Assembly: GCA_026395055.1 (NCBI GenBank)
Contig: JAPLZK010000001.1
Location: 17,527 to 81,526, forward strand
Direction: 5' to 3'
Length of the DNA stretch: 64,000 nucleotides
From: Candidatus Uhrbacteria bacterium
GTDB taxonomy: Bacteria > Patescibacteriota > Patescibacteriia > UBA9934 > GWF2-40-263
Shown here: piece by piece, positions 2,473 through 63,630 of the stretch
How positions within the stretch are numbered: position 1 is the stretch's first letter
Layout of the letters: every line of letters starts with the position of its first letter
Notes under the pieces: generated by a model
What the model saw: only the letters and a program-made list of their open reading frames with translations
The model's database searches: none
Told to the model about the DNA's origin: nothing
Program-made: the position numbers and the translations under genes

Positions 2473-2624
2473 CTTTATCTCCTGTTTACATCACATGGAA
2501 AGAACATTCAGCCCCGTGCTGAATGAGCAAACCTAGCAAAGAATATGGGTAATGTCAATCCATGATAGGTCGCCTGCAAACTCGACAAAAATCAGAATTC
2601 TGATACCCTAAAGTCCAGTACATA

Positions 2625-2750
2625 CGAAAACCTTCCAAATTGGATGCAAAATTTATGTGGCTCGAGCACCGCACGTGAGCCGTACACGGAAGTACGGTGA
2701 ACGCGGAGCACAGAGACACATAAATTTGGCGCCGATTTGGAAGGTTTTCG
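2625..2750 (+). ncRNA. ~125-nt near-perfect extended hairpin abutting the tRNA-Leu 5' end (element copy A)
   Basis: Outer arms CGAAAACCTTCCAAATTGG / CCGATTTGGAAGGTTTTCG, inner arms AAATTTATGTG / CACATAAATTT, central CCGTAC-ACGGAA-GTACGG; homologous to the element at 36095-36221. Confidence 0.5.
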
Positions 2751-2751
2751 T

Positions 2752-2837
2752 GGGATGATGGCGGAATGGTATACGCAGGGGACTTAAAATCCCCGGGAGG
2801 AAACTCCATGCGGGTTCAAGTCCCGCTCGTCCCACCA
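2752..2837 (+). tRNA. tRNA-Leu (anticodon TAA), long variable arm, CCA encoded
   Basis: Acceptor GGGATGA/TCGTCCC, anticodon loop CTTAAAA, variable arm GGGAGGAAACTCCAT, T-arm GCGGGTTCAAGTCCCGC. Confidence 0.85.
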
Positions 2838-2872
2838 CACAAACATCAAGGCAGACCTATCCGGTCTGTTTT

Positions 2873-3166
2873 TTGTATGCTCGATTGACATTCCACTCCA
2901 AAAGCCTTAAGTTCTGGACAGACACACCAGACGTGAGGCTCACCATGCCGCAAGAAAAACTGTTACCCTTTCATAAAAGCATCCTCATGCTCATTGCGAA
3001 TGCAAATGTGCAAGAGATGAGCATCTTTGCACATCAAATCCATATCACGCTGATTCCTCCGAGTAGTTATGGAGAAATTCTGCGTGCCTGGAAACGTCGA
3101 TGCCAAGAAATCAAGTGTCCAGATCATGGGATCACGGCACGGCTCTCAACCTCGGATCACAACTAA
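2873..3166 (+). CDS. hypothetical protein
   Basis: 97-aa ORF, no recognisable domain or clear RBS. Confidence 0.25.
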   Translation: MYARLTFHSKSLKFWTDTPDVRLTMPQEKLLPFHKSILMLIANANVQEMSIFAHQIHITLIPPSSYGEILRAWKRRCQEIKCPDHGITARLSTSDHN

Positions 3167-3178
3167 CAAGGAGCGAAC

Positions 3179-3430
3179 ATGGCAGTAAAAAAACTTCGTC
3201 CGTTTGAGGAAACAATCGTGGAGGCAATCAAAACCGCAAACAGCTCGCATCTTGAGCTCATTGCCATTTTGCTTGAACGCACCATTATCACAAAAGATCA
3301 TGCGCTCATTGTGTCCACGTGGCTCAATCAATGCATGGGATTTCATTTCGATGCAAAATACGCCACAAGAGTCGCGAACAGCATCTTTACACAAGGACAA
3401 TCGCAAGCTCTCGAAAAGAAAGATCTCTAA
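3179..3430 (+). CDS. hypothetical small protein
   Basis: 83 aa; AAGGAG Shine-Dalgarno 6 nt upstream of the ATG; terminator follows. Confidence 0.5.
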
Positions 3431-3436
3431 ACGGAC

Positions 3437-3475
3437 CACCTATCGCAAATGTGCAAGGTGGTTTTTTCTTTTCCA
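3437..3475 (+). terminator. rho-independent terminator
   Basis: CCACCT-loop-AGGTGG followed by TTTTTTC. Confidence 0.55.
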
Positions 3476-3521
3476 CACGTTCCTTGCGCTTCCTTCTCGA
3501 CTGCCACATAATGAAGCCAAT

Positions 3522-4583
3522 ATGATCGAACGCGAAGAATTCGAAATGCCCATCGCGCCTTCGACAGGCTCAGGCAATAATACTGTCACACCAAATGCCT
3601 CCCCAGAAGAGCGCGATTTTGAGTTTTCCCTTCGTCCAAAAACACTTGCGGACTTTGTGGGACAAGAAGGATTAAAGGAAAACTTGACGGTATTCATGGG
3701 CGCGGCAAAAAAACGTGAGGAACCCATTGAACATGTGTTGCTCTACGGAAATCCAGGACTCGGAAAAACAACCCTCGCACATATCATTGCAAATGAAATG
3801 GGTTCACAGATTCGTGTAACGTCGGGTCCTGCTCTTGAGAAAGTCGGCGATCTTGCGGCGATTCTTTCAAATCTCCAGAAAGGAGACATTTTATTTATCG
3901 ACGAGATTCATCGTATTAACAAAACGATCGAGGAAGTTTTATATCCGGCCATGGAAGACTACGCGCTCGACATTATCGTCGGCAAAGGTCCGACCGCACG
4001 TACCCTTCGCATTAACCTTGAACATTTCACCCTTATTGGTGCTACAACACGTCTTTCCTTGTTATCCGCCCCGCTGCGAGATCGTTTTGGGATGGTGCAT
4101 CACTTAGATTTTTATAAACGCGATGACCTCGCAACCATTCTTCGTCGCAACGCAAATATCTTACGAACCCCCATTCATGATGACGCGGTAGAACTCCTTG
4201 CTATGCGCTCACGTCTCACACCTCGTATTGCAAACCGCATGCTTCGCCGCGCACGTGACTTCGCACAAGTAAAAGGTGACGGCACCATCACTCCAGACCT
4301 TTGCCGCGACGCCCTCGCCATGATGCGTGTTGATGAAGAAGGATTAGATGCCGTTGATCGCCACATCCTCACCACTATCATGGAAAAATTTCAGGGTGGC
4401 CCCGTTGGTCTTTCCACCATTGCTGCAGCCACACAAGAAGAAATGGAAACCATTGAAGATGTTCATGAACCCTACTTACTCCAACTCGGTTTTCTTGCGC
4501 GCACTCCACGTGGACGCATTGCCACGGATCGCGCATACAAACATCTCGGCATAGATATCCCAGAACAAAGTCGTCTGATATAA
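3522..4583 (+). CDS. ruvB: Holliday junction branch migration helicase RuvB
   Basis: Walker [10 protein letters not shown], Walker [10 protein letters not shown], RuvB C-terminal winged helix. The ORF track extends 5' to 3204, but the RuvB homology starts at MIEREEF (3522), preceded by CATAAT about 11 nt upstream. Confidence 0.9.
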
Positions 4584-4593
4584 TACATTCACT

Positions 4594-4887
4594 ATGCCAT
4601 TCACTCTTGCAGACATCAGTATCCCCGTTTCTATCTTCTTTGGATTATACGGAATATTTTTGTGCTGTTATGTCATTTACGGATTCTTTAACCTCGTTCA
4701 CTTGTTAGAATACGGCCGCGTTGGCGCGCCCCTCTTTGCCATTGTGATTGGGTTTGTTGGTGGAACCGTTCTTCTTGTCGCCGGATCCATCATTTGGTTA
4801 TTTCATTATGATCTGACGTACACCGTTCCGCTTGGAGAAATGATCAATTCGTTCAAACAGTATTTCTCCCATAAAACAGCCTTCTAA
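4594..4887 (+). CDS. small integral membrane protein
   Basis: 97 aa, 3 predicted TM helices. Confidence 0.45.
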   Translation: MPFTLADISIPVSIFFGLYGIFLCCYVIYGFFNLVHLLEYGRVGAPLFAIVIGFVGGTVLLVAGSIIWLFHYDLTYTVPLGEMINSFKQYFSHKTAF

Positions 4888-4892
4888 CGACT

Positions 4893-5450
4893 ATGCTCTC
4901 TCCTGATCACATTCCAAACAAGCGAAACAATGAAAAAATCGTTCTGTTTCTCAGACGACATTGGTTTGCGGTTTTGTCATTGGTTGTTTCCTTTATCTTA
5001 CTTACAGTTATTCCCATTGGGCTCGCCATCTACTTTTGGGACACGCTTTCGCTCTGGCTTGCAGAACCATTCTTTGGTGTTTTACTCTCGGTCCTCATTA
5101 GTATGTATTTCCTAGGCGTATGGCTTGTTACTGCCACAGGATTCACCGATTATTATCTTGATACGTGGATTGTTACAAACGAACGCATTATCAACATTGA
5201 ACAACAAGGATTATTTCAACGCGTTGCATCCGAACTGGATCTCACAACGGTTCAAGACGTCACGGCAGAAATTAGCGGTGTCCTTGAAACCCTGTTCCAG
5301 TTTGGTGATGTAGAAATCCAAACTGCCGGAGAACGAGAACACTTTGAGTTTAGACACGTTCCACATCCAGAACACGTAAAAGAAGTTATCATGCAATTAG
5401 TTCAAGCAGACAAGCGAGCGCTTGCGACAGGACAAACTCCCCCGGCATAA
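4893..5450 (+). CDS. membrane protein with bacterial PH domain (bPH_2 / YdbS-YdbT-like, DUF304)
   Basis: 2 N-terminal TM helices followed by YYLDTWIVTNERII, the PH-like fold signature. Confidence 0.55.
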   Translation: MLSPDHIPNKRNNEKIVLFLRRHWFAVLSLVVSFILLTVIPIGLAIYFWDTLSLWLAEPFFGVLLSVLISMYFLGVWLVTATGFTDYYLDTWIVTNERIINIEQQGLFQRVASELDLTTVQDVTAEISGVLETLFQFGDVEIQTAGEREHFEFRHVPHPEHVKEVIMQLVQADKRALATGQTPPA

Positions 5451-5451
5451 A

Positions 5452-5488
5452 TAAAATATCCTCCGATGATCGGAGGATATTTTATTTA
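5452..5488. terminator. bidirectional terminator between convergent genes
   Basis: AAATATCCTCCGAT-GATCGGAGGATATTT perfect hairpin flanked by A/T runs. Confidence 0.6.
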
Positions 5489-6406
5489 CCATGTATAGGA
5501 TTTCCAAGCCCAGCTTGAAAGGGTTTTTGCATCCGCAAACGATTGCGCACGCGAGTCCGAACCAAAGATGACAAGCAACAACTCTTTTTTTGCATTATTA
5601 TCTTTTGGACGAAGGGCTGTGACAAAATTCCAGGAGGACTCCTCTAGATACCCCGTTTTTCCCGCAACAACGATTCCGTTATTATAAGCAGGCTTTGTGA
5701 GCATCCAATTTGTATTTTGAATTTTTTTAATGGTTCCCGTATTGACCATGCGAACATTCCTTATGGGTGTACTCGCATATTTCTTAATGAACACGTTCTT
5801 GAACGCTTCATCGGCAACTTTTGCGAGTTCCATTGGCGTAGAGACATTCGCAGGATCTATTCCACTTGGATCAACGTACACCGTCGATTTTAATCCGAAC
5901 ACTTTTGCTTTTGCATTCATAGCATCTACGAACTCTTCTCTTGTGAGTCCCGTAGAGCGTGCAAGTGCATTTGCCGCGTTGTTTGCGGAACCGACAAGCA
6001 TGGAATAGAACAGATCGTCGATGGTGAACGCATCTCCGTTCTTCACATACAGTTTTGCTCCGCCCACATCATCCTCTGTGAGAACACCAAATATTTTTTT
6101 AGGGGATTCTTTTTTTTCAAGAACAATCTGTGCAGTCATGAGTTTTGTTGTCGAAGCAATGGGCCACACAAGATTTTCATTTTTCTCCGTGAGAACAATT
6201 CCGGTCGAGCGATCAATGACGACATAGGCCTTCGCATGAATCTTTGATTCGATCTCAGACGTGTCTACACGAACAGGTATTTTTGATTTTGTGGCGACGA
6301 TGGGAGTCTTCGGAGTTGGTTTCTTTATAACGGGCGCAGCAAAAATTACCGTGGGAAAAACCAGAAGGATGAAAAATGCGAAAATGATTTTCTTTAGAAC
6401 GTTCAT
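5486..6406 (-). CDS. D-alanyl-D-alanine carboxypeptidase (serine peptidase S11, PBP5 family)
   Basis: Signal anchor; SxxK (ASTTKLMT), SGN (VGSANNA) and KTG (AGKTGY) motifs. Start chosen at MNVLKK, whose ATG overlaps the stop of the upstream gene. Confidence 0.8.
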   Translation of the reverse strand: MNVLKKIIFAFFILLVFPTVIFAAPVIKKPTPKTPIVATKSKIPVRVDTSEIESKIHAKAYVVIDRSTGIVLTEKNENLVWPIASTTKLMTAQIVLEKKESPKKIFGVLTEDDVGGAKLYVKNGDAFTIDDLFYSMLVGSANNAANALARSTGLTREEFVDAMNAKAKVFGLKSTVYVDPSGIDPANVSTPMELAKVADEAFKNVFIKKYASTPIRNVRMVNTGTIKKIQNTNWMLTKPAYNNGIVVAGKTGYLEESSWNFVTALRPKDNNAKKELLLVIFGSDSRAQSFADAKTLSSWAWKSYTW

Positions 6407-6407
6407 G

Positions 6408-7325
6408 TTATGCGTACGAATTCTCGTAATGTGATTTATCAACAATACGTGGAGTGTCTTTCCCGTCATAGGAAGCAAACGTGTAATCAACCGTATTTCC
6501 TTGCTTGTCCTTTTCTGTCGTGATTTCCCAAATCAATTGCGTGCCATAAACATTTGATTGTTTTGATGTGCGCCCGTCTGGAGAATACGTAAATTTTACC
6601 GCGCCGACGGATTGTTTGTTTTCTCCGTCAATAATTTGACCACGTTGTTCCTCTATAAGTTGACCCTGTTCATTATAACGTTTTGCATACCACATTCCTC
6701 GTTTTGCCGAACTGCCTTCATACGATCGATGCATTATTTCGCGTCCATCTTTGTCATACGTGAATTCGGCGCTTAACATTCCATCCTTCGTTTCTTTTTT
6801 CTTTGTTGTTCCGTCTAATTCTTGCGTGTACTCATACGTTCGCAACGCTTCCGTCATTGGACTTGTTTCTCTCATTTGACCGGCAAACATCATGGCCGAC
6901 GGACGACCCTGCTCGTCATATTCATGTTCCGTTCCGATAAAAGACGTTTTATCTGCATATTTTATTTCTCTACGCTCTGACTGAACTCGCCCCTTTGCAT
7001 CATAGGCGATGGATTCTGTCGTTGTGCGAAAACGTGGATCTGCAGTTTTTGTTTTTTTATCGGGAGACAAAAAATCAAATAATTTCTTTTTTGGTACAAG
7101 AGCATTGTTCTCAGGCGCTTTTTCTGCAGCAGTTTCTTCGCTTGTCGTCACTTTGCGAACAACACGACCTTTATCGTCATAACTCAAAGCGGTTCGTTCC
7201 AAAACGGAACCAGGCTTTCCATTATAAAGAGACGTTTTTACAACCTCCACCAATCGCTTGGGAGTTTTCTCTGCCTCCTTTTTAAGGACCCCCTCCATAC
7301 TTCCCATGAATTCAGACATATGCAA
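6408..7325 (-). CDS. YD-repeat (RHS-like repeat) protein
   Basis: 305 aa with at least six degenerate YD repeats (YDDKGRV, YDAKGRV, YDEQGRP, TYDKDGRE, YNEQGQL, YSPDGRT). Confidence 0.6.
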   Translation of the reverse strand: MHMSEFMGSMEGVLKKEAEKTPKRLVEVVKTSLYNGKPGSVLERTALSYDDKGRVVRKVTTSEETAAEKAPENNALVPKKKLFDFLSPDKKTKTADPRFRTTTESIAYDAKGRVQSERREIKYADKTSFIGTEHEYDEQGRPSAMMFAGQMRETSPMTEALRTYEYTQELDGTTKKKETKDGMLSAEFTYDKDGREIMHRSYEGSSAKRGMWYAKRYNEQGQLIEEQRGQIIDGENKQSVGAVKFTYSPDGRTSKQSNVYGTQLIWEITTEKDKQGNTVDYTFASYDGKDTPRIVDKSHYENSYA

Positions 7326-35908: not shown

Positions 35909-35959
35909 TCTCACCCGTTCCATGAACGGGTTTTTTGTTTCAACATCTTTGATACATCG

Positions 35960-36000
35960 CCAAACAAAAAAATCGAATAGAAACATTCGATTTTTTTGTT
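35960..36000. terminator. bidirectional terminator (19-bp perfect stem)
   Basis: CCAAACAAAAAAATCGAAT-AGAAAC-ATTCGATTTTTTTGTTTGG. Confidence 0.65.
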
Positions 36001-36090
36001 TGGCGGAGAGGGAGGGATTTGAACCCTCGATACCCTTGCAGGCATACGTGATTTCGAGTCACGCGCATTCGACCACTCTGCCACCTCTCC
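36001..36090 (-). tRNA. tRNA-Ser (anticodon CGA), long variable arm, CCA encoded
   Basis: Reverse complement GGAGAGGTGGCAGAGTGGTCGAATGCGCGTGACTCGAAATCACG...GGTTCAAATCCCTCCCTCTCCGCCA. Confidence 0.85.
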
Positions 36091-36094
36091 ACGC

Positions 36095-36221
36095 GTAAAA
36101 CCTTCAAAATTGGCGACCTGCTTGCGCTTCGCAGAAAAAATATTTCGGAGTACTTTTTGGTACACCTCAATATTTTTTCCGCTCCAGCGCGGCGCATCTC
36201 ATCCAATTTTGAAGGTTTTAC
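36095..36221 (-). ncRNA. ~125-nt near-perfect extended hairpin abutting the tRNA-Ser 5' end (element copy B)
   Basis: Outer arms GTAAAACCTTCAAAATTGG / CCAATTTTGAAGGTTTTAC (perfect), inner arms AAAAAATATT / AATATTTTTT; arms 17/19 identical to the element at 2625-2750. Confidence 0.5.
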
Positions 36222-36313
36222 TCGACGAGAGGATAACACGCTAAAGTCGTCGTATCAAGCGTTGACAAAATCACTTTTCAATGATAAGAACTCTCTCACC
36301 CAGGAGGTGCTCT

Positions 36314-36910
36314 TTGAAACCAAGATACAAAACCATCGAGAAGATGTTACGCAAGGTTGATGAGCCAAATCGCTCTGCGTGTCTGAAAATTGTAGCAGAT
36401 CATCGCAAGCTGTTTCAGACTGTGCAAGGGTCGACGAATAACCATCAAGCGTGGCTTGGCGGATACTTCGATCATGTTCAGGAAATCATGAACATTGCGG
36501 TGCGGCAGTTCAAACTGTTGAATCGCCTGCGACCACTTCACTTTTCGCTTTCAGATCTTCTCCTCGTCGTGTTTCTGCATGATATCGAGAAGCCTTGGAA
36601 GTATGAACTGCGTGAGGATGGTGAACTGCACCACATCGCTTCCATGGAAACCAAGGAAGACCACCAACGCTTCCGTATGCAAAAACTCACGGAGTATGGG
36701 ATTCAGTTGTCGCCCGATCAAGAAAACGGCATCACGTATGCCGAGGGTGAAGTGAACAACTACTCCGCTCGCGAACGCCGCATGAGCCCGCTCGCCGCCG
36801 TCGCACACATGTGTGACGTGTGCAGCGCACGCGTCTGGTTTGATCACCCAATGACAGGAAATGATCCGTGGCCTGGCGCACGTCGCGTGCGTGACACAGG
36901 AGGTGTTTAA
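36314..36910 (+). CDS. HD domain phosphohydrolase-like protein
   Basis: FLHDIEKP HD motif; start set at TTG 5 nt after AGGAGGTG (track ORF starts at 36281). Confidence 0.55.
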   Translation: MKPRYKTIEKMLRKVDEPNRSACLKIVADHRKLFQTVQGSTNNHQAWLGGYFDHVQEIMNIAVRQFKLLNRLRPLHFSLSDLLLVVFLHDIEKPWKYELREDGELHHIASMETKEDHQRFRMQKLTEYGIQLSPDQENGITYAEGEVNNYSARERRMSPLAAVAHMCDVCSARVWFDHPMTGNDPWPGARRVRDTGGV

Positions 36911-51773: not shown

Positions 51774-51849
51774 GGCCTGATGGCGAAGTGGTTAACGCGG
51801 CGGTCTGCAAAACCGCTATGCGAGGGTTCAACTCCCTCTCAGGCCTCCA
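51774..51849 (+). tRNA. tRNA-Cys (anticodon GCA), CCA encoded
   Basis: Acceptor GGCCTGA/TCAGGCC, anticodon stem GCGGT/ACCGC with loop CTGCAAA, T-arm GAGGGTTCAACTCCCTC, discriminator U. Confidence 0.75.
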
Positions 51850-51885
51850 AACAAAAAACCCGAGCGTAATGCTCGAGTTTTTTGT
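51850..51885. terminator. bidirectional terminator
   Basis: AAAAAACCCGAGC-GTAAT-GCTCGAGTTTTTTGTTTT. Confidence 0.6.
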
Positions 51886-51886
51886 T

Positions 51887-52546
51887 TTAGAATACTTCAA
51901 TGGTTGTTTGTTTCAATCCGAACTGTTTGGCTTGTTTTAAATCCTTGAGCCAAATGTCCATGTGCTTGTCATAACGTGCGTTCATACGGTCTTGCACCGT
52001 AAAAATACGGTCACCATATAATTCTGGAATACGCACGTGCGTTCCCATGGGCAAAAAGTTTGCCGCAACAACGTCTTCAAGCCCACGTTTACATACGTTC
52101 ATTCCAGAAGCTGTAATACAAGGGGAATCGTCCGTTTGGCCGACTTCCGAAGTATAAGCCGTAATTGGAATGGTATATGTCTTACGCGCCTTTGCATCAA
52201 CAGAAACCGGAAGGTCTCCGAATGATTTTGTTTCATTTTCCATGGCGTTAATCATAAGCGCCACGGTTTGGTGATCCACGGGCTTTTGGTCCGTTGCCAT
52301 GTCTGCGTTCGCCATTGCTGGGAAAAAGACATATGTACCAATCATTGCCACAAAGGCAACAACAGAAACATCAAAGGCATATTTACGAACAAGAACCAAT
52401 TTTTGTGTAATTTTAATGAAGATTTTGGATGTGAAAAAAGCAACGGTACGTACGTACCCAAAATCGTTGTCCCAAATCATAGCGATTGCCGATTTGGTTT
52501 TCTTTTGAATTGTTTTCAAGCCCTTTGTTAAGCGTTTATTTGTCAT
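51887..52546 (-). CDS. 3D-domain protein (MltA-like lytic transglycosylase domain; YabE/YocH-like)
   Basis: N-terminal TM anchor; C-terminal block with three conserved Asp (GQTDDSP ... DVVAANF ... DRMNARYDKHMDIW). Confidence 0.6.
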   Translation of the reverse strand: MTNKRLTKGLKTIQKKTKSAIAMIWDNDFGYVRTVAFFTSKIFIKITQKLVLVRKYAFDVSVVAFVAMIGTYVFFPAMANADMATDQKPVDHQTVALMINAMENETKSFGDLPVSVDAKARKTYTIPITAYTSEVGQTDDSPCITASGMNVCKRGLEDVVAANFLPMGTHVRIPELYGDRIFTVQDRMNARYDKHMDIWLKDLKQAKQFGLKQTTIEVF

Positions 52547-59642: not shown

Positions 59643-60362
59643 CTATTTATCCCAAAGCATCTCAAACATTTCCTTGAAAATATCCACCATACTTGGAACT
59701 TCGATAACAACCGCTAAAGCGGTTTGATCTGGGCTTACGATCAGGATTTTATCATCAAAGATATCCATTGTACTTTTAAATATGTGGTTCTTTGGCAGTA
59801 CTCGAACTTCTCGAAGCAACTTCTCATCATCAGGACTCGCTTTGACCGAGTCGGCTGAAAGCAGAATTCGTGTTTTTATTTTCGCATCCGCTCGATCGAA
59901 CCGAAACTTTTGAAAAAACTCAGGATTAATTCCCTCCCAAGCCGTCGCACTTCCGATCGCGTCGTAAGATTTTCCTTTATATTCAGCGAGAATGCCTGTG
60001 TAGAAACGCTCAAGCTCTTGTTTTGTCTCGATAAAACGTAGGCCTACACTCGAAACAGTTTGTTTCTCGACAGACTTTAGCTCTGGAATGATTGCATTGA
60101 ACGATTCGAGCCGCTTTTCGAACTGTCCAGCGACTTTGTCTGGCTTTTCTGCTCGATATAAACGCTTTGACTTGTGAAAATACGTAGAAGCAAAGCCTTT
60201 TTCATGCAAAGACTTGAGGATTGGATAGATTGTTGTCCGCTTCAAACCGACTTCCTTTGACAAAGCAATGGCATTTGCACCCCCAAATTTCAATAAAGCG
60301 AGGTAAGTTCGCGCCTCGTCTTCGGTTAGTCCGAGGGTTTGAAGAGTGGTTACGTGGGACAT
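59643..60362 (-). CDS. TrmB-family transcriptional regulator
   Basis: N-terminal winged HTH (LTEDEARTYLALLKFGGANAIALSKEVGLKRTTIYPILKSLHEKGF) plus C-terminal effector-like domain. Confidence 0.6.
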   Translation of the reverse strand: MSHVTTLQTLGLTEDEARTYLALLKFGGANAIALSKEVGLKRTTIYPILKSLHEKGFASTYFHKSKRLYRAEKPDKVAGQFEKRLESFNAIIPELKSVEKQTVSSVGLRFIETKQELERFYTGILAEYKGKSYDAIGSATAWEGINPEFFQKFRFDRADAKIKTRILLSADSVKASPDDEKLLREVRVLPKNHIFKSTMDIFDDKILIVSPDQTALAVVIEVPSMVDIFKEMFEMLWDK

Positions 60363-60371
60363 AAGGGGTGT

Positions 60372-60483
60372 TTGAGGTACAGATTACAGATATGGTTGAT
60401 ATACAGATAAAACAAATGGCCGATAATCTGGGCTTATTTCTAGAATCTGTATATCCGTATGCCGCCATCTGTAATCTGTACCT
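60372..60483. promoter_or_regulatory. nested inverted repeats in the TrmB-regulator upstream region (candidate operators)
   Basis: Outer GAGGTACAGATTACAGAT..GG / CCATCTGTAATCTGTACCTC (~20 bp); inner GATATACAGAT / ATCTGTATATC. Confidence 0.4.
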
Positions 60484-60580
60484 CAAGTATTTTATACTGT
60501 CAAAATTTTACAACGGAATTTGATTCTTGTCAAGCTTATACTAAATTTAGCCAAATTATTTATTAAATCCGTTTGGATCC

Positions 60581-62340: not shown

Positions 62341-62366
62341 TATAACGTCACTCGCGAGTGACGTTA
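62341..62366 (-). terminator. terminator for the DUF167 gene
   Basis: ATAACGTCACTC-GCGA-GTGACGTTAT perfect 11-bp stem. Confidence 0.5.
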
Positions 62367-62581
62367 TTTATTTCCACCTGTTTTATTCGTGTCGTCTTCC
62401 CTCTCACAATCTCGATGCGAGACTTTGCAATGTCGAGATCGTTGGACAACACTTCAATCACCGCATCATTTGCCTTCCCCTTCTCCGCAATTGCCGTTAC
62501 GGATATCTTCACGGTCTCTTCATCGATCCATTCGATCTTGTTTTGTCGCGATCGAGGTTTTACGTGGACGGTGATAATCAT
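62348..62581 (-). CDS. DUF167 (YggU/UPF0235) family protein
   Basis: 77 aa; VHVKPRS ... IAEKGKANDAVIEVLS ... IVRGKTTRIKQVEI matches the DUF167 pattern. Confidence 0.6.
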   Translation of the reverse strand: MIITVHVKPRSRQNKIEWIDEETVKISVTAIAEKGKANDAVIEVLSNDLDIAKSRIEIVRGKTTRIKQVEINNVTRE

Positions 62582-62667
62582 AAATTCGAATATCGAATAA
62601 CGAAATCCGAAAACTCAAGCCTTTTTTGTTTATAGTTTTCGAATTTCGTTATTCGATATTCGAATTT
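62582..62667. repeat. 25-bp perfect inverted repeat with nested 8-bp IR, abutting the DUF167 start codon
   Basis: AAATTCGAATATCGAATAACGAAAT ... ATTTCGTTATTCGATATTCGAATTT; inner CGAAAACT / AGTTTTCG; loop contains CCTTTTTTG. Confidence 0.65.
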
Positions 62668-62672
62668 ATTTT

Positions 62673-63512
62673 TTATCCTCTCCACTTCTTCAACAACTTC
62701 ACTTCCCCTGCACGCTTCTCATCCATTGGCGTTTCAAGAAGCAAATCAAGATGCTGTAACTTTGGATGTTGCACAAACAACTTGATCGCGTCTTTGCCAA
62801 TGAGTCCATCGCCGATCGACTCGTGTCGATCTTTGTGTGAGCCCAATTCGACCTTTGAGTCGTTCAAGTGTGATGCAACTAATTTCTTCAACCCCACAAT
62901 CTTGTCGAATTTTTTTATCATTGTGTCGAGAAGCTCCGGTGTACGAAAATCGTATCCGCTTCCGAATGCATGTTGTGTGTCAAAACAAATACCAATTTCT
63001 TTTCCACGTTCTGCGCCGTCGAGAAAAGCCGCAAGTTCTTCGAATGAGTCGCCCATTACCGCTCCTGCACCCGCCGAGATTTCGATAAGCAATTGGCACG
63101 AACCTTTGTATCCATGCATGATTTTATTAAGCCCTTCGATCACAAGTTTCACTCCCGCCTCTTCTCCAACTTCTTTCGCCGACCCCGGATGAAACATCAT
63201 CCCCTTTACACCGAGCAAACTTCCACGCTCGAGTTCTTCACGCAAAATGCGAATCGAGTTTCCGCGAGTAGACGCTTTCTCGGACGCAAGGTTTGTGATG
63301 TATGGGCCGTGAATGTAACAGCTTTTGATTTTGTGTTCGATCATCGCATCTCGAAACATCTTTTGATCTTCCTCTGTAATATTTCGAACGTTCCCGCCTT
63401 GTGGCGGACGCGAAAAGAACTGGAAGGTTTCGCACCCAATTTCTCCCGCATTTTTGGGTCCATTGAATAATCCACCTGCTGCTGAAACGTGGGCACCGAC
63501 ATGCATATTGAA
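62673..63512 (-). CDS. nfo: endonuclease IV (AP endonuclease family 2)
   Basis: MHVGAHVSAAGG start, metal-binding His/Glu/Asp pattern (HGPY, HLNDSK); start at M29 of the track ORF. Confidence 0.85.
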   Translation of the reverse strand, partial: FNMHVGAHVSAAGGLFNGPKNAGEIGCETFQFFSRPPQGGNVRNITEEDQKMFRDAMIEHKIKSCYIHGPYITNLASEKASTRGNSIRILREELERGSLLGVKGMMFHPGSAKEVGEEAGVKLVIEGLNKIMHGYKGSCQLLIEISAGAGAVMGDSFEELAAFLDGAERGKEIGICFDTQHAFGSGYDFRTPELLDTMIKKFDKIVGLKKLVASHLNDSKVELGSHKDRHESIGDGLIGKDAIKLFVQHPKLQHLDLLLETPMDEKRAGEVKLLKKWRG

Positions 63513-63630
63513 AATGATATGTAGGGACAGGTCGCGACCTGTCCGACTATTAACAATAGAAGTATACGCAGAAATCCAGAAAAGAAAAAACCGCATCGCA
63601 AATGCGAGACGGTTGAGGTGCGGTCATGGT

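Follow-up and report, generated by a model that had tools for sequence, protein, structure and literature searches.

Analysis of a 64-kb stretch of DNA from a Candidatus Uhrbacteria bacterium (contig JAPLZK010000001.1; G+C ~44%), hereafter the window, reveals two long palindromic hairpin elements, each of which adjoins the 5' side of a tRNA gene, on the tRNA's own strand and in one and the same orientation. The element that forms the main subject here, W2 (127 nt; 36095-36221, minus strand), lies 4 nt from position +1 of a tRNA-Ser(CGA) gene, and its companion W1 (128 nt; 2624-2751, plus strand) directly abuts a tRNA-Leu(UAA) gene, with 0 nt between the two. Together with copies from other genomes they belong to a family that is sporadic and dispensable, and which would therefore be mobile at some level. 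We propose, with a confidence that stands about midway between belief and disbelief, that the W2 family is a mobile palindromic element that survives in tRNA leaders as in a passive safe harbour. The host lineage is indicated by the RuvB protein of the window (3204-4583), whose best matches are 90% and 86% identical and are followed by a long series at 68-74%, the names attached to these being Candidatus Uhrbacteria, and the window accordingly belongs to the Parcubacteria group of the Patescibacteria.

Examination of W2 reveals perfect outer arms, with 19 of 19 bp paired: GTAAAACCTTCAAAATTGG (36095-36113), nearest the tRNA, would be the 3' arm in the transcript, and CCAATTTTGAAGGTTTTAC (36203-36221), nearest the promoter, the 5' arm. 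Between them lies an 89-nt interior (36114-36202), in which AAAAAATATT (36135-36144) pairs with AATATTTTTT (36169-36178) as part of a 23-nt inner inverted repeat (36131-36153 / 36160-36182; 83% complementary). This apical hairpin, which contains an A6/T6 tract (36131-36182), is the variable module of the family and is absent from a short form found in a relative (L020, below). W2 has no open reading frame (ORF) of its own and folds as a single, almost unbroken hairpin; its minimum free energy together with tRNA-Ser is -112.8 kcal/mol, against -66.3 +/- 4.6 for 200 shuffles, none of which folds as well (z = -10.1), and the fold of W1 is comparable (z = -10.6). Both elements were delimited by inverted repeats, fold and a covariance model, R1, which scores W2 at 122 bits on the minus strand as against 46 bits on the plus strand. 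The adjoining genes, tRNA-Ser(CGA) (36001-36090, minus strand; U at position -1) and tRNA-Leu(UAA) (2752-2837, plus strand), were called by ARAGORN and Rfam, and two of the four tRNAs of the window carry a hairpin, tRNA-Gly and tRNA-Cys having no such element. A 17-nt arm, AAAACCTTCMAAATTGG, occurs four times in the window, these being both arms of W2 and both arms of W1. With three mismatches allowed this count is barely above chance, as 2 of 100 shuffles reach four; chance becomes untenable once the pairing of the arms and the counterparts in other genomes are considered. An initial annotation of this DNA had described W2 as a second copy of the W1 hairpin with perfect 19-bp arms, an 89-nt interior and inner pairing, each copy adjoining a tRNA gene, and all of this is borne out: the arms and inner pairing by the sequence and the inverted-repeat analysis, the kinship by the shared 17-nt arm and the adjacency by the distances given above.

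The placement of the elements relative to predicted promoters suggests that they form part of pre-tRNA leaders. A scan for sigma-70-type promoters recovered a candidate for the tRNA-Ser unit at 36230-36258 on the minus strand, comprising a -35 box TTGATA (36258-36253), a 17-nt spacer and a TG-extended -10 box TGtTATCCT (36238-36230, with TATCCT at 36235-36230). Its boxes are kept in two relatives, L019 and L020, while the spacer has diverged, and the site is taken to be the real tRNA-Ser promoter. W2 begins ~8 nt downstream of this -10 box, and the predicted transcription start (~36221-36223) coincides with the base of its stem. The candidate promoter of the tRNA-Leu unit (2582-2609, plus strand; TCGACA, a 16-nt spacer and TGaTACCCT) lies 14 nt upstream of W1, and in a hairpin-free relative (L016) the same promoter sequence stands 10 nt upstream of an identical tRNA-Leu. 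The position of a pre-tRNA leader fits both hairpins, which lie on the tRNA strand between predicted start and +1, at 8 nt (W2) and 14 nt (W1) from the promoter. Scans for a promoter inside W2 and W1, including the 3' half of the hairpin, found none, the gap between hairpin and tRNA is too short for one, and the short form in L020 likewise leaves no space for an internal promoter. Given this lack of promoter space and the absence of a detectable promoter inside the elements, we strongly infer that the tRNAs are transcribed through the hairpins from the upstream promoters. As W2 and W1 both lie downstream of the tRNA promoter, the relevant transcription unit would be the tRNA and not the neighbouring gene. 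An extended 30-nt inverted repeat, in which CCTCTC pairs with the tRNA 5' end GAGAGG, was considered as a functional feature and rejected, as its upstream half is the -10 region, which precedes the start and is also present in L019, where the hairpin is absent.

The same layout bears on the divergent plus-strand gene at 36281-36910, which had been labelled an HD-domain gene and whose promoter W2 had been thought possibly to overlap. The best candidate promoter of this gene (36262-36290, plus strand; TTGACA at 36262-36267, a 17-nt spacer and TGaTAAGAA at 36282-36290) lies outside W2, starting 41 nt beyond it and back to back with the minus-strand tRNA-Ser promoter, and is conserved in L019 and L020, which speaks against the overlap. 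The gene itself is real and conserved across Parcubacteria, its product being 65-75% identical in more than 100 Parcubacteria clusters. The HD label is unconfirmed: the protein has an H...HD motif (FLHDIEKP) and one source names a homolog YhaM-like, and Pfam and PDB sequence searches with the protein returned no match.

Other copies of the element are rare. The exact two-arm pattern, scanned against one genome per species (596 Gb of genomes) and the Joint Genome Institute (JGI) metagenomes, occurs in only a handful of places: an Uhrbacteria contig (L002), nine loci in a single Holosporales metagenome-assembled genome (MAG) and one palindromic contig end among the genomes, and one copy (L012) plus two doubtful matches among the metagenomes. 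The pattern had no match in viral contigs, and blastn of W2 and of the Holosporales repeat found none in plasmids. L005 and L014, perfect palindromes continuing into the flanking sequence, are probably due to chance or to fold-backs in assembly and were set aside, as was L013, which is not a hairpin. The Uhrbacteria contig L002 holds three copies within 1.4 kb, as compared to two in the 64 kb of the window, again in one orientation relative to the tRNAs: the first (6191-6318) ends 2 nt before tRNA-Arg (anticodon GCG; 5' part cut off by the locus end), and two more, recovered by a relaxed search, lie 1 nt upstream of tRNA-Ser(GCT) (5057-5184) and 1 nt upstream of tRNA-Ser(UGA) (5295-5422). The L002 arms ATAATTCGTTCAAAATTG and ATAATTCGCCTAAAATTG are unlike AAAACCTTCAAAATTG, yet the partner arm matches each perfectly, and the arms AAAACCTTC, AATTCGTTC and AATTCGCCT each have a perfect complement in their own partner arm. 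Including the L020 short form, there are six copies at five tRNA loci (W1 at Leu-UAA, W2 and L020 at Ser-CGA, and those of L002 at Arg-GCG, Ser-GCT and Ser-UGA), all of them in sense orientation and 0-4 nt from the tRNA 5' end, with U at position -1 in five of the six. Model R1 gives the sense strand by far the higher score. L012 stands apart: it is situated 3 nt beyond the stop codon of secY, where genes converge and no tRNA is present, and comes from a different Parcubacteria lineage, its SecY being 80-82% identical to proteins named Nomurabacteria or Pacebacteria. The sample is thus a small one, of seven copies from four assemblies of the candidate phyla radiation (CPR). Direct repeats of 2-4 nt are absent from the ends of all seven; the left flanks of the copies differ (GTCGA, ACGTAT, GTACAT, AATAG, AATAT and GTCAC), and the tRNA 5' ends at the element loci (GGGATGA, GGAGAGG and GCATCCG) have no common sequence.

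Alignment of the W2-type copies in the tRNA sense revealed four common modules: 1) an outer stem of 18-19 bp; 2) a basal stem whose asymmetric loops, ...CAGAUACGCCGGGCUGGAGGG... facing ...CCGAAGCCCAAGUAGCUGAC..., are conserved; 3) a short A-rich/U-rich stem; 4) an apical hairpin, the sequence of which is unrelated from copy to copy. In a six-copy alignment 26 of 43 consensus pairs are changed on both sides, a number that none of 500 column shuffles reaches, and sliding the partner by 1-3 columns leaves only 5-9 double-changed pairs and lowers the pairing from 87% to 30-50%. At the level of these aligned copies, the pairing of the element is thereby shown to be maintained through compensatory changes. 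G-U and A-C oppositions are nearly equal in number (14 vs 13) and the stem changes are nearly all fully Watson-Crick, a combination that suits a palindrome maintained in DNA or copying from arm to arm; as a wobble test for RNA-level selection these counts proved uninformative. The interior of W1 differs from that of W2 and is related instead to the Holosporales repeat described below.

Comparison of the tRNA-Ser site across relatives speaks directly to the history of W2. In L019, where the identity of the neighbouring protein is 96%, the site is empty and reads ...CTCTCCACGCG followed immediately by TCGAGAGAATAGCACGC..., whereas the window reads ...CTCTCCACGCG, then the inserted TAAAACC...GGTTTTAC, and then TCGACGAGAGGATAACACGC...; relative to this empty site the inserted segment is 36096-36221, with zero duplicated target bases. 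L020, in which the neighbouring protein is 75% identical, has at the same position a 62-nt short form consisting of the arms and about 23 nt, the central ~66 nt of W2 being missing and a C-G pair of the arms being replaced by U-A. The arms of the window and L020 agree at 35 of 38 positions and the tRNA is 90% identical, the adjacent intergenic and coding DNA being only ~70% identical. As the outgroup L020 and the window have in common a flank, CGTCGAG, that is partly missing from L019, the simplest history would be old presence, followed by deletion of the apical part in L020 and, in L019, of ~129 nt with slight imprecision. The element can clearly be lost, to judge by these sites. Homologs of the neighbouring protein in L021-L023 and L026-L029 have a different gene order, and the tRNA is absent at those loci.

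The tRNA-Leu(UAA) ortholog that precedes the ruvB operon is without the hairpin in all four relatives available (L015, L016, L018 and L024, with RuvB 90%, 74%, 74% and 72% identical to that of the window), and on this comparison W1 is confined to the lineage of the window. In L015, the closest of these, an ORF resembling an HNH endonuclease (2592-3065) ends 2 nt before the tRNA, and the window has a CAAX-protease gene and W1 in its place, which makes the tRNA-Leu 5' edge a break in gene order between close relatives. Nor do tRNA genes of the clade carry the element as a rule, as none of the three tRNAs in L024 and neither of two in L016 has one. A different long hairpin, GAGATTCATGCAGGATAT...ATATCTTGCATGAATTTTC, occurs in L024 (Uhrbacteria RIFOXYB12_FULL_58_10; 6802-6900, minus strand) ~35 nt upstream of tRNA-Gly (6727-6801); it sits upstream of a TATACT box and outside the leader.

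The most numerous relatives of the family are found in the Holosporales MAG Cd354_bin5, an alphaproteobacterial genome with at least 13 copies, in both orientations, of a ~149-nt unit (L001, L003, L004 and L006-L011). Its inverted repeat consists of GGACCTCTTTCG followed by the same core, AAACCTTCAAAAT; the terminal repeat measures ~45 nt (GGACCTCTTTCGAAACCTTCAAAATCAG...). Identical 3-nt direct repeats (AAT, ATT or AGT) flank the inverted repeat in 6 of 10 copies, and most of the others differ by one base. As judged from its copies, the behaviour of this repeat is that of a classical miniature inverted-repeat transposable element (MITE). The Holosporales loci examined held no parent insertion sequence, only further small or decayed copies, one of the latter being L010 1462-1530. 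Another copy (L006 5039-5187; JAIRNW010000071.1) lies inside a 597-codon ORF (3806-5599, plus strand), recalling the Rickettsia palindromic elements. The Holosporales interior has an 11-mer, a 10-mer, an 8-mer and several 7-mers in common with W1, to a degree that none of 5000 shuffles matches, and W1 (2644-2731) and L004 (133-220) carry their common 7-11-nt blocks on the same strand in mirror order. Rearrangement was considered as the cause of this order, which is better, though only in part, explained by the presence of the same purine-rich motifs on both arms of each element: GAGCAC and GAGC motifs occur on both arms of W1 and of the Holosporales repeat, where they oppose themselves as A-A and tandem G-A mismatches. 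With the family scattered over two CPR lineages and an alphaproteobacterial MAG, its distribution calls for horizontal spread.

In light of the above, we envisage that transcription initiated at the tRNA promoter would include the hairpin as a leader of ~130 nt at the 5' end, and that RNase P would remove it along with the leader, possibly after RNase III has cut the long stem. On this layout the mature tRNA would be unaffected and the insertion tolerated, so that in a very compact genome a tRNA leader could offer a safe harbour to a hairpin that need not serve its host. The precision with which the copies adjoin tRNAs is largely accounted for by the shortness of native leaders (~3-10 nt in L016, L018 and L019), as an insertion that spares both promoter and tRNA must adjoin the tRNA. 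We infer transcription, processing and transposition alike from layout and comparison.

Several observations weigh against this proposal. The constant orientation at five loci is not accounted for by a passive safe harbour alone. From the window to L020 the arms of W2 match the tRNA itself in conservation, well above the ~70% of the flanking DNA, and the tRNA-Ser site favours long retention with a 129-nt deletion in L019 over recent insertion. Target-site duplications are absent from every CPR copy, as are the outer 12 nt of the Holosporales repeat and its direct repeats, and a transposase with matching ends was found neither in the loci examined nor in plasmids. Asymmetric internal loops (GCC/AA and GGA/GA) are kept between W2 and the three L002 copies. 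Furthermore, the mismatches on the tRNA-sense strand are overwhelmingly purine-purine (~38, as against 3 pyrimidine-pyrimidine), in the W2-type and the W1 interiors alike, and the sense strand is the more stable in all seven copies, by 2-9.5 kcal/mol, although the copies are related by descent and the counts of mismatch and stability are hence not of independent events. The two tests of the level, DNA or RNA, at which pairing matters disagree.

Many of these features would be expected if the hairpin were a functional structured leader RNA, or an RNA released by RNase P, for which mobility is only the way of spreading; we regard this alternative as possible, if on balance unlikely. The function could reside in protein binding through the purine-rich loops, in the modulation or ordering of pre-tRNA processing, as RNase P should be impeded by a stem that reaches position -1 for as long as RNase III has not opened it, or in a stable ~125-nt RNA with a role of its own. 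In its favour are the fixed orientation and position at five tRNA loci, the strong covariation, the retained asymmetric loops, the purine-purine bias of the sense strand in otherwise unrelated W2-type and W1-type interiors, the greater stability of that strand in 7/7 copies and the tRNA-like conservation of the arms amid more diverged DNA. Bacterial RNase P prefers U at position -1, the base present in five of the six tRNA-linked copies. Set against this is the dispensability of the element: L019 has an empty site, L020 lacks the apical two thirds, and the tRNA-Leu of four relatives is hairpin-free. Moreover, only some tRNAs carry it (2/4 in the window and 0/3 in L024), L012 and all Holosporales copies lie away from tRNAs, and there is no Rfam match. 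The near-equal G-U and A-C counts give no wobble signature of RNA-level selection, and nearly every change in the stem keeps Watson-Crick pairing on either strand, as in a DNA palindrome.

A broader formulation, which we consider rather unlikely, is that the hairpins constitute a CPR-specific class of leader RNA, at once mobile and position-specific, which is either inserted at tRNA starts or functional, with its ends then set by the transcription start and RNase P. In its functional variant, such an RNA may act on pre-tRNA maturation or as a stable double-stranded RNA.

Improbable, in our estimate, is that the element is actively targeted to tRNA transcription starts by a DNA-level insertion with a set orientation. 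Any recognition would have to be sequence-independent, given that the tRNA 5' ends concerned have no common sequence, and the cue would be structural, such as an open complex, single-stranded DNA or an R-loop at highly transcribed tRNA promoters. W1 is suggestive in this respect, for despite a different interior and its absence from 4/4 orthologous sites it has the same placement and orientation as the W2-type copies. The strand specificity and the absence of target-site duplication also recall transposition of single strands by HUH/Y1 enzymes, which is strand-specific and leaves no such duplication. On the other side, no transposase or recombinase was identified in the loci examined, the flanks have no conserved target motif, and short leaders of ~3-10 nt remove much of the apparent precision. 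The tRNA-Ser site favours old presence and loss over repeated insertion, and the two L002 tRNA-Ser copies may be a single tandem duplication. As noted for a functional RNA, the Holosporales copies and L012 lie away from tRNAs.

We consider it very improbable that W2 acts at the DNA level, as a palindromic protein-binding or cruciform site on the divergent promoters, or as an A6/T6 bidirectional terminator or attenuator before the tRNA: strictly Watson-Crick arms do suit a structure that forms on both DNA strands, the A-tract/T-tract cores of W2, L002a and L012 have the look of bidirectional terminators, and L012, after secY and between convergent genes, is where a terminator would be expected, but W2 lies downstream of both -10 boxes, neither between nor upstream of them, a terminator scan called none within 36095-36221, four of the seven copies (L002b, L002c, W1 and L020) have no U tract, and it would be counterproductive to terminate transcription ahead of the only tRNA that the promoter serves.

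Returning to the proposal of a mobile element in a safe harbour, the features of W2 can be compared with those of known repeat classes. Like a MITE, W2 is short and non-coding with terminal inverted repeats (127 nt, 19-bp perfect arms), and its family shows presence/absence polymorphism (L019 being empty, L020 short, and L015, L016, L018 and L024 without W1); dispersed copies in both orientations are seen in the Holosporales MAG (at least 13), and target-site duplication is lacking in the CPR copies. The Correia elements of Neisseria (CREE), the enterobacterial repetitive intergenic consensus or intergenic repeat unit sequences (ERIC/IRU) and the repeat units of pneumococcus (RUP) are MITEs that are co-transcribed with neighbouring genes, and they occur as many dispersed copies in either orientation, with target-site duplications and with interiors conserved throughout each family. 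RNase III cleaves the Correia hairpins, in which terminator-like or promoter-like signals may be present. The W2 family resembles all three in being short and non-coding, with terminal inverted repeats, a hairpin that spans the whole unit and presence/absence polymorphism. Unlike them, its CPR copies are few and duplication-free, with modular interiors and variable apical hairpins; they are found almost only between a tRNA promoter and its tRNA, in one orientation, and their arm sequence may vary provided it stays paired. Rickettsia palindromic elements are palindromes of ~100-150 nt that occur in reduced genomes as in-frame insertions in protein genes. Their likeness to the W2 family is one of general description: in both, palindromic repeats are tolerated inside transcribed or functional genes, and the Holosporales relative belongs to the same broad alphaproteobacterial setting, whereas the W2 family occupies tRNA leaders.

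Repetitive extragenic palindromic (REP) elements are 20-40 nt long, have a GTAG or CGTC head and are linked to REP-associated tyrosine transposases (RAYTs) (PMC3733652). The W2-type unit differs from these and from bacterial interspersed mosaic elements (BIMEs) in its length of 62-128 nt and in its ends, (G)TAAAACC or ATAATTCG, without a GTAG or CGTC head; no RAYT gene was seen among the few annotated ORFs, which makes for a weak test. The ends of IS200/IS605 elements are marked by short subterminal hairpins, and insertion takes place next to a fixed 4-5-nt target. The absence of duplication fits this group, and the differing left flanks and single long hairpin do not; no Y1 transposase gene was found for the W2 family. 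Nevertheless, the family has some likeness to REP/BIME and to IS200/IS605-derived palindrome-associated transposable elements (PATEs), of which hairpins recognised by structure, functionally asymmetric strands, lack of duplication and orientation-specific placement are features. Integron attC sites are similar in size and are likewise recognised by structure, through R and L boxes with an unpaired spacer and extrahelical bases; an informal comparison led us to reject this class, as the 19-bp perfect outer stem of W2 has neither such boxes nor such bases. Nor did the scan recover in W2 the G+C-rich stem and following U tract of an intrinsic terminator. In Rfam 15 at gathering thresholds only the four tRNAs of the window pass, and under permissive settings the element matches only generic miRNA-hairpin models, at 22-24 bits as against gathering thresholds of 54-140.

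Ty3, Ty1 and the Dictyostelium element TRE5-A insert upstream of tRNA genes in gene-dense genomes, sites that are regarded as a safe haven, and are autonomous retroelements guided by Pol III transcription factors (PMC6101501, PMC5911963). The W2 family is like them in lying immediately upstream of tRNA genes in a gene-dense genome, and unlike them in that W2 is a non-coding bacterial hairpin of ~125 nt, inside the predicted transcribed leader and not upstream of the promoter. A further parallel is offered by the tRNA-miRNA-encoded RNA (TMER) genes of murine gammaherpesvirus 68, in which hairpins lie 3' of a tRNA-like part and are released by RNase Z. In both cases one end of a hairpin RNA would be set by processing of the tRNA type within the same primary transcript; in W2 the hairpin is 5' of the tRNA and would be released by RNase P.

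Other hairpins of the window deserve mention. Just after tRNA-Ser there is an A/T-tract hairpin resembling a terminator (35958-36005, minus strand), the outer stem of which pairs with the tRNA 3' end (CGCCA). It has a common AAACAAAAAA...TTTTTTGTTT frame with a similar hairpin after tRNA-Cys (51849-51887), and the A-tract/T-tract core of the W2-type elements resembles both. In a further hairpin (60372-60486), of a sequence unrelated to W2, the 20-nt arms TTGAGGTACAGATTACAGAT / ATCTGTAATCTGTACCTCAA pair perfectly around 75 nt of interior sequence, within which 60398-60455 forms a second inverted repeat; this hairpin ends 10 nt upstream of the start codon of a minus-strand ORF (59643-60362). Another, which bears no relation to the tRNA-linked family, spans 90 nt (62580-62669): its 36-nt arms are 97% complementary, its loop measures 18 nt, and minus-strand ORFs flank it on either side (62348-62581 and 62673-63596).

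That palindromic MITE-like elements are co-transcribed and fold into hairpins is well known. Our literature search returned only eukaryotic tRNA-targeting retrotransposons and general work on REP elements and MITEs, and no bacterial element resident in tRNA leaders was found described; the apparently new features are the near-exclusive and orientation-specific residence in bacterial tRNA 5' leaders, arms that are paired but variable, and the lack of target-site duplication. CPR bacteria have tiny, dense genomes and cannot be cultured on their own, and little is known of their mobile DNA and RNA processing. The element therefore represents a natural case for asking where selfish DNA survives in a minimal genome, and whether a long hairpin abutting a tRNA alters its processing by RNase P. 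If the hairpin is functional, it would represent a new class of leader RNA. Targeted insertion, if such it is, would be the first bacterial counterpart of tRNA-directed integration, which is so far known from eukaryotic retrotransposons alone. The link to Holosporales, finally, points to an exchange of such elements across phyla.

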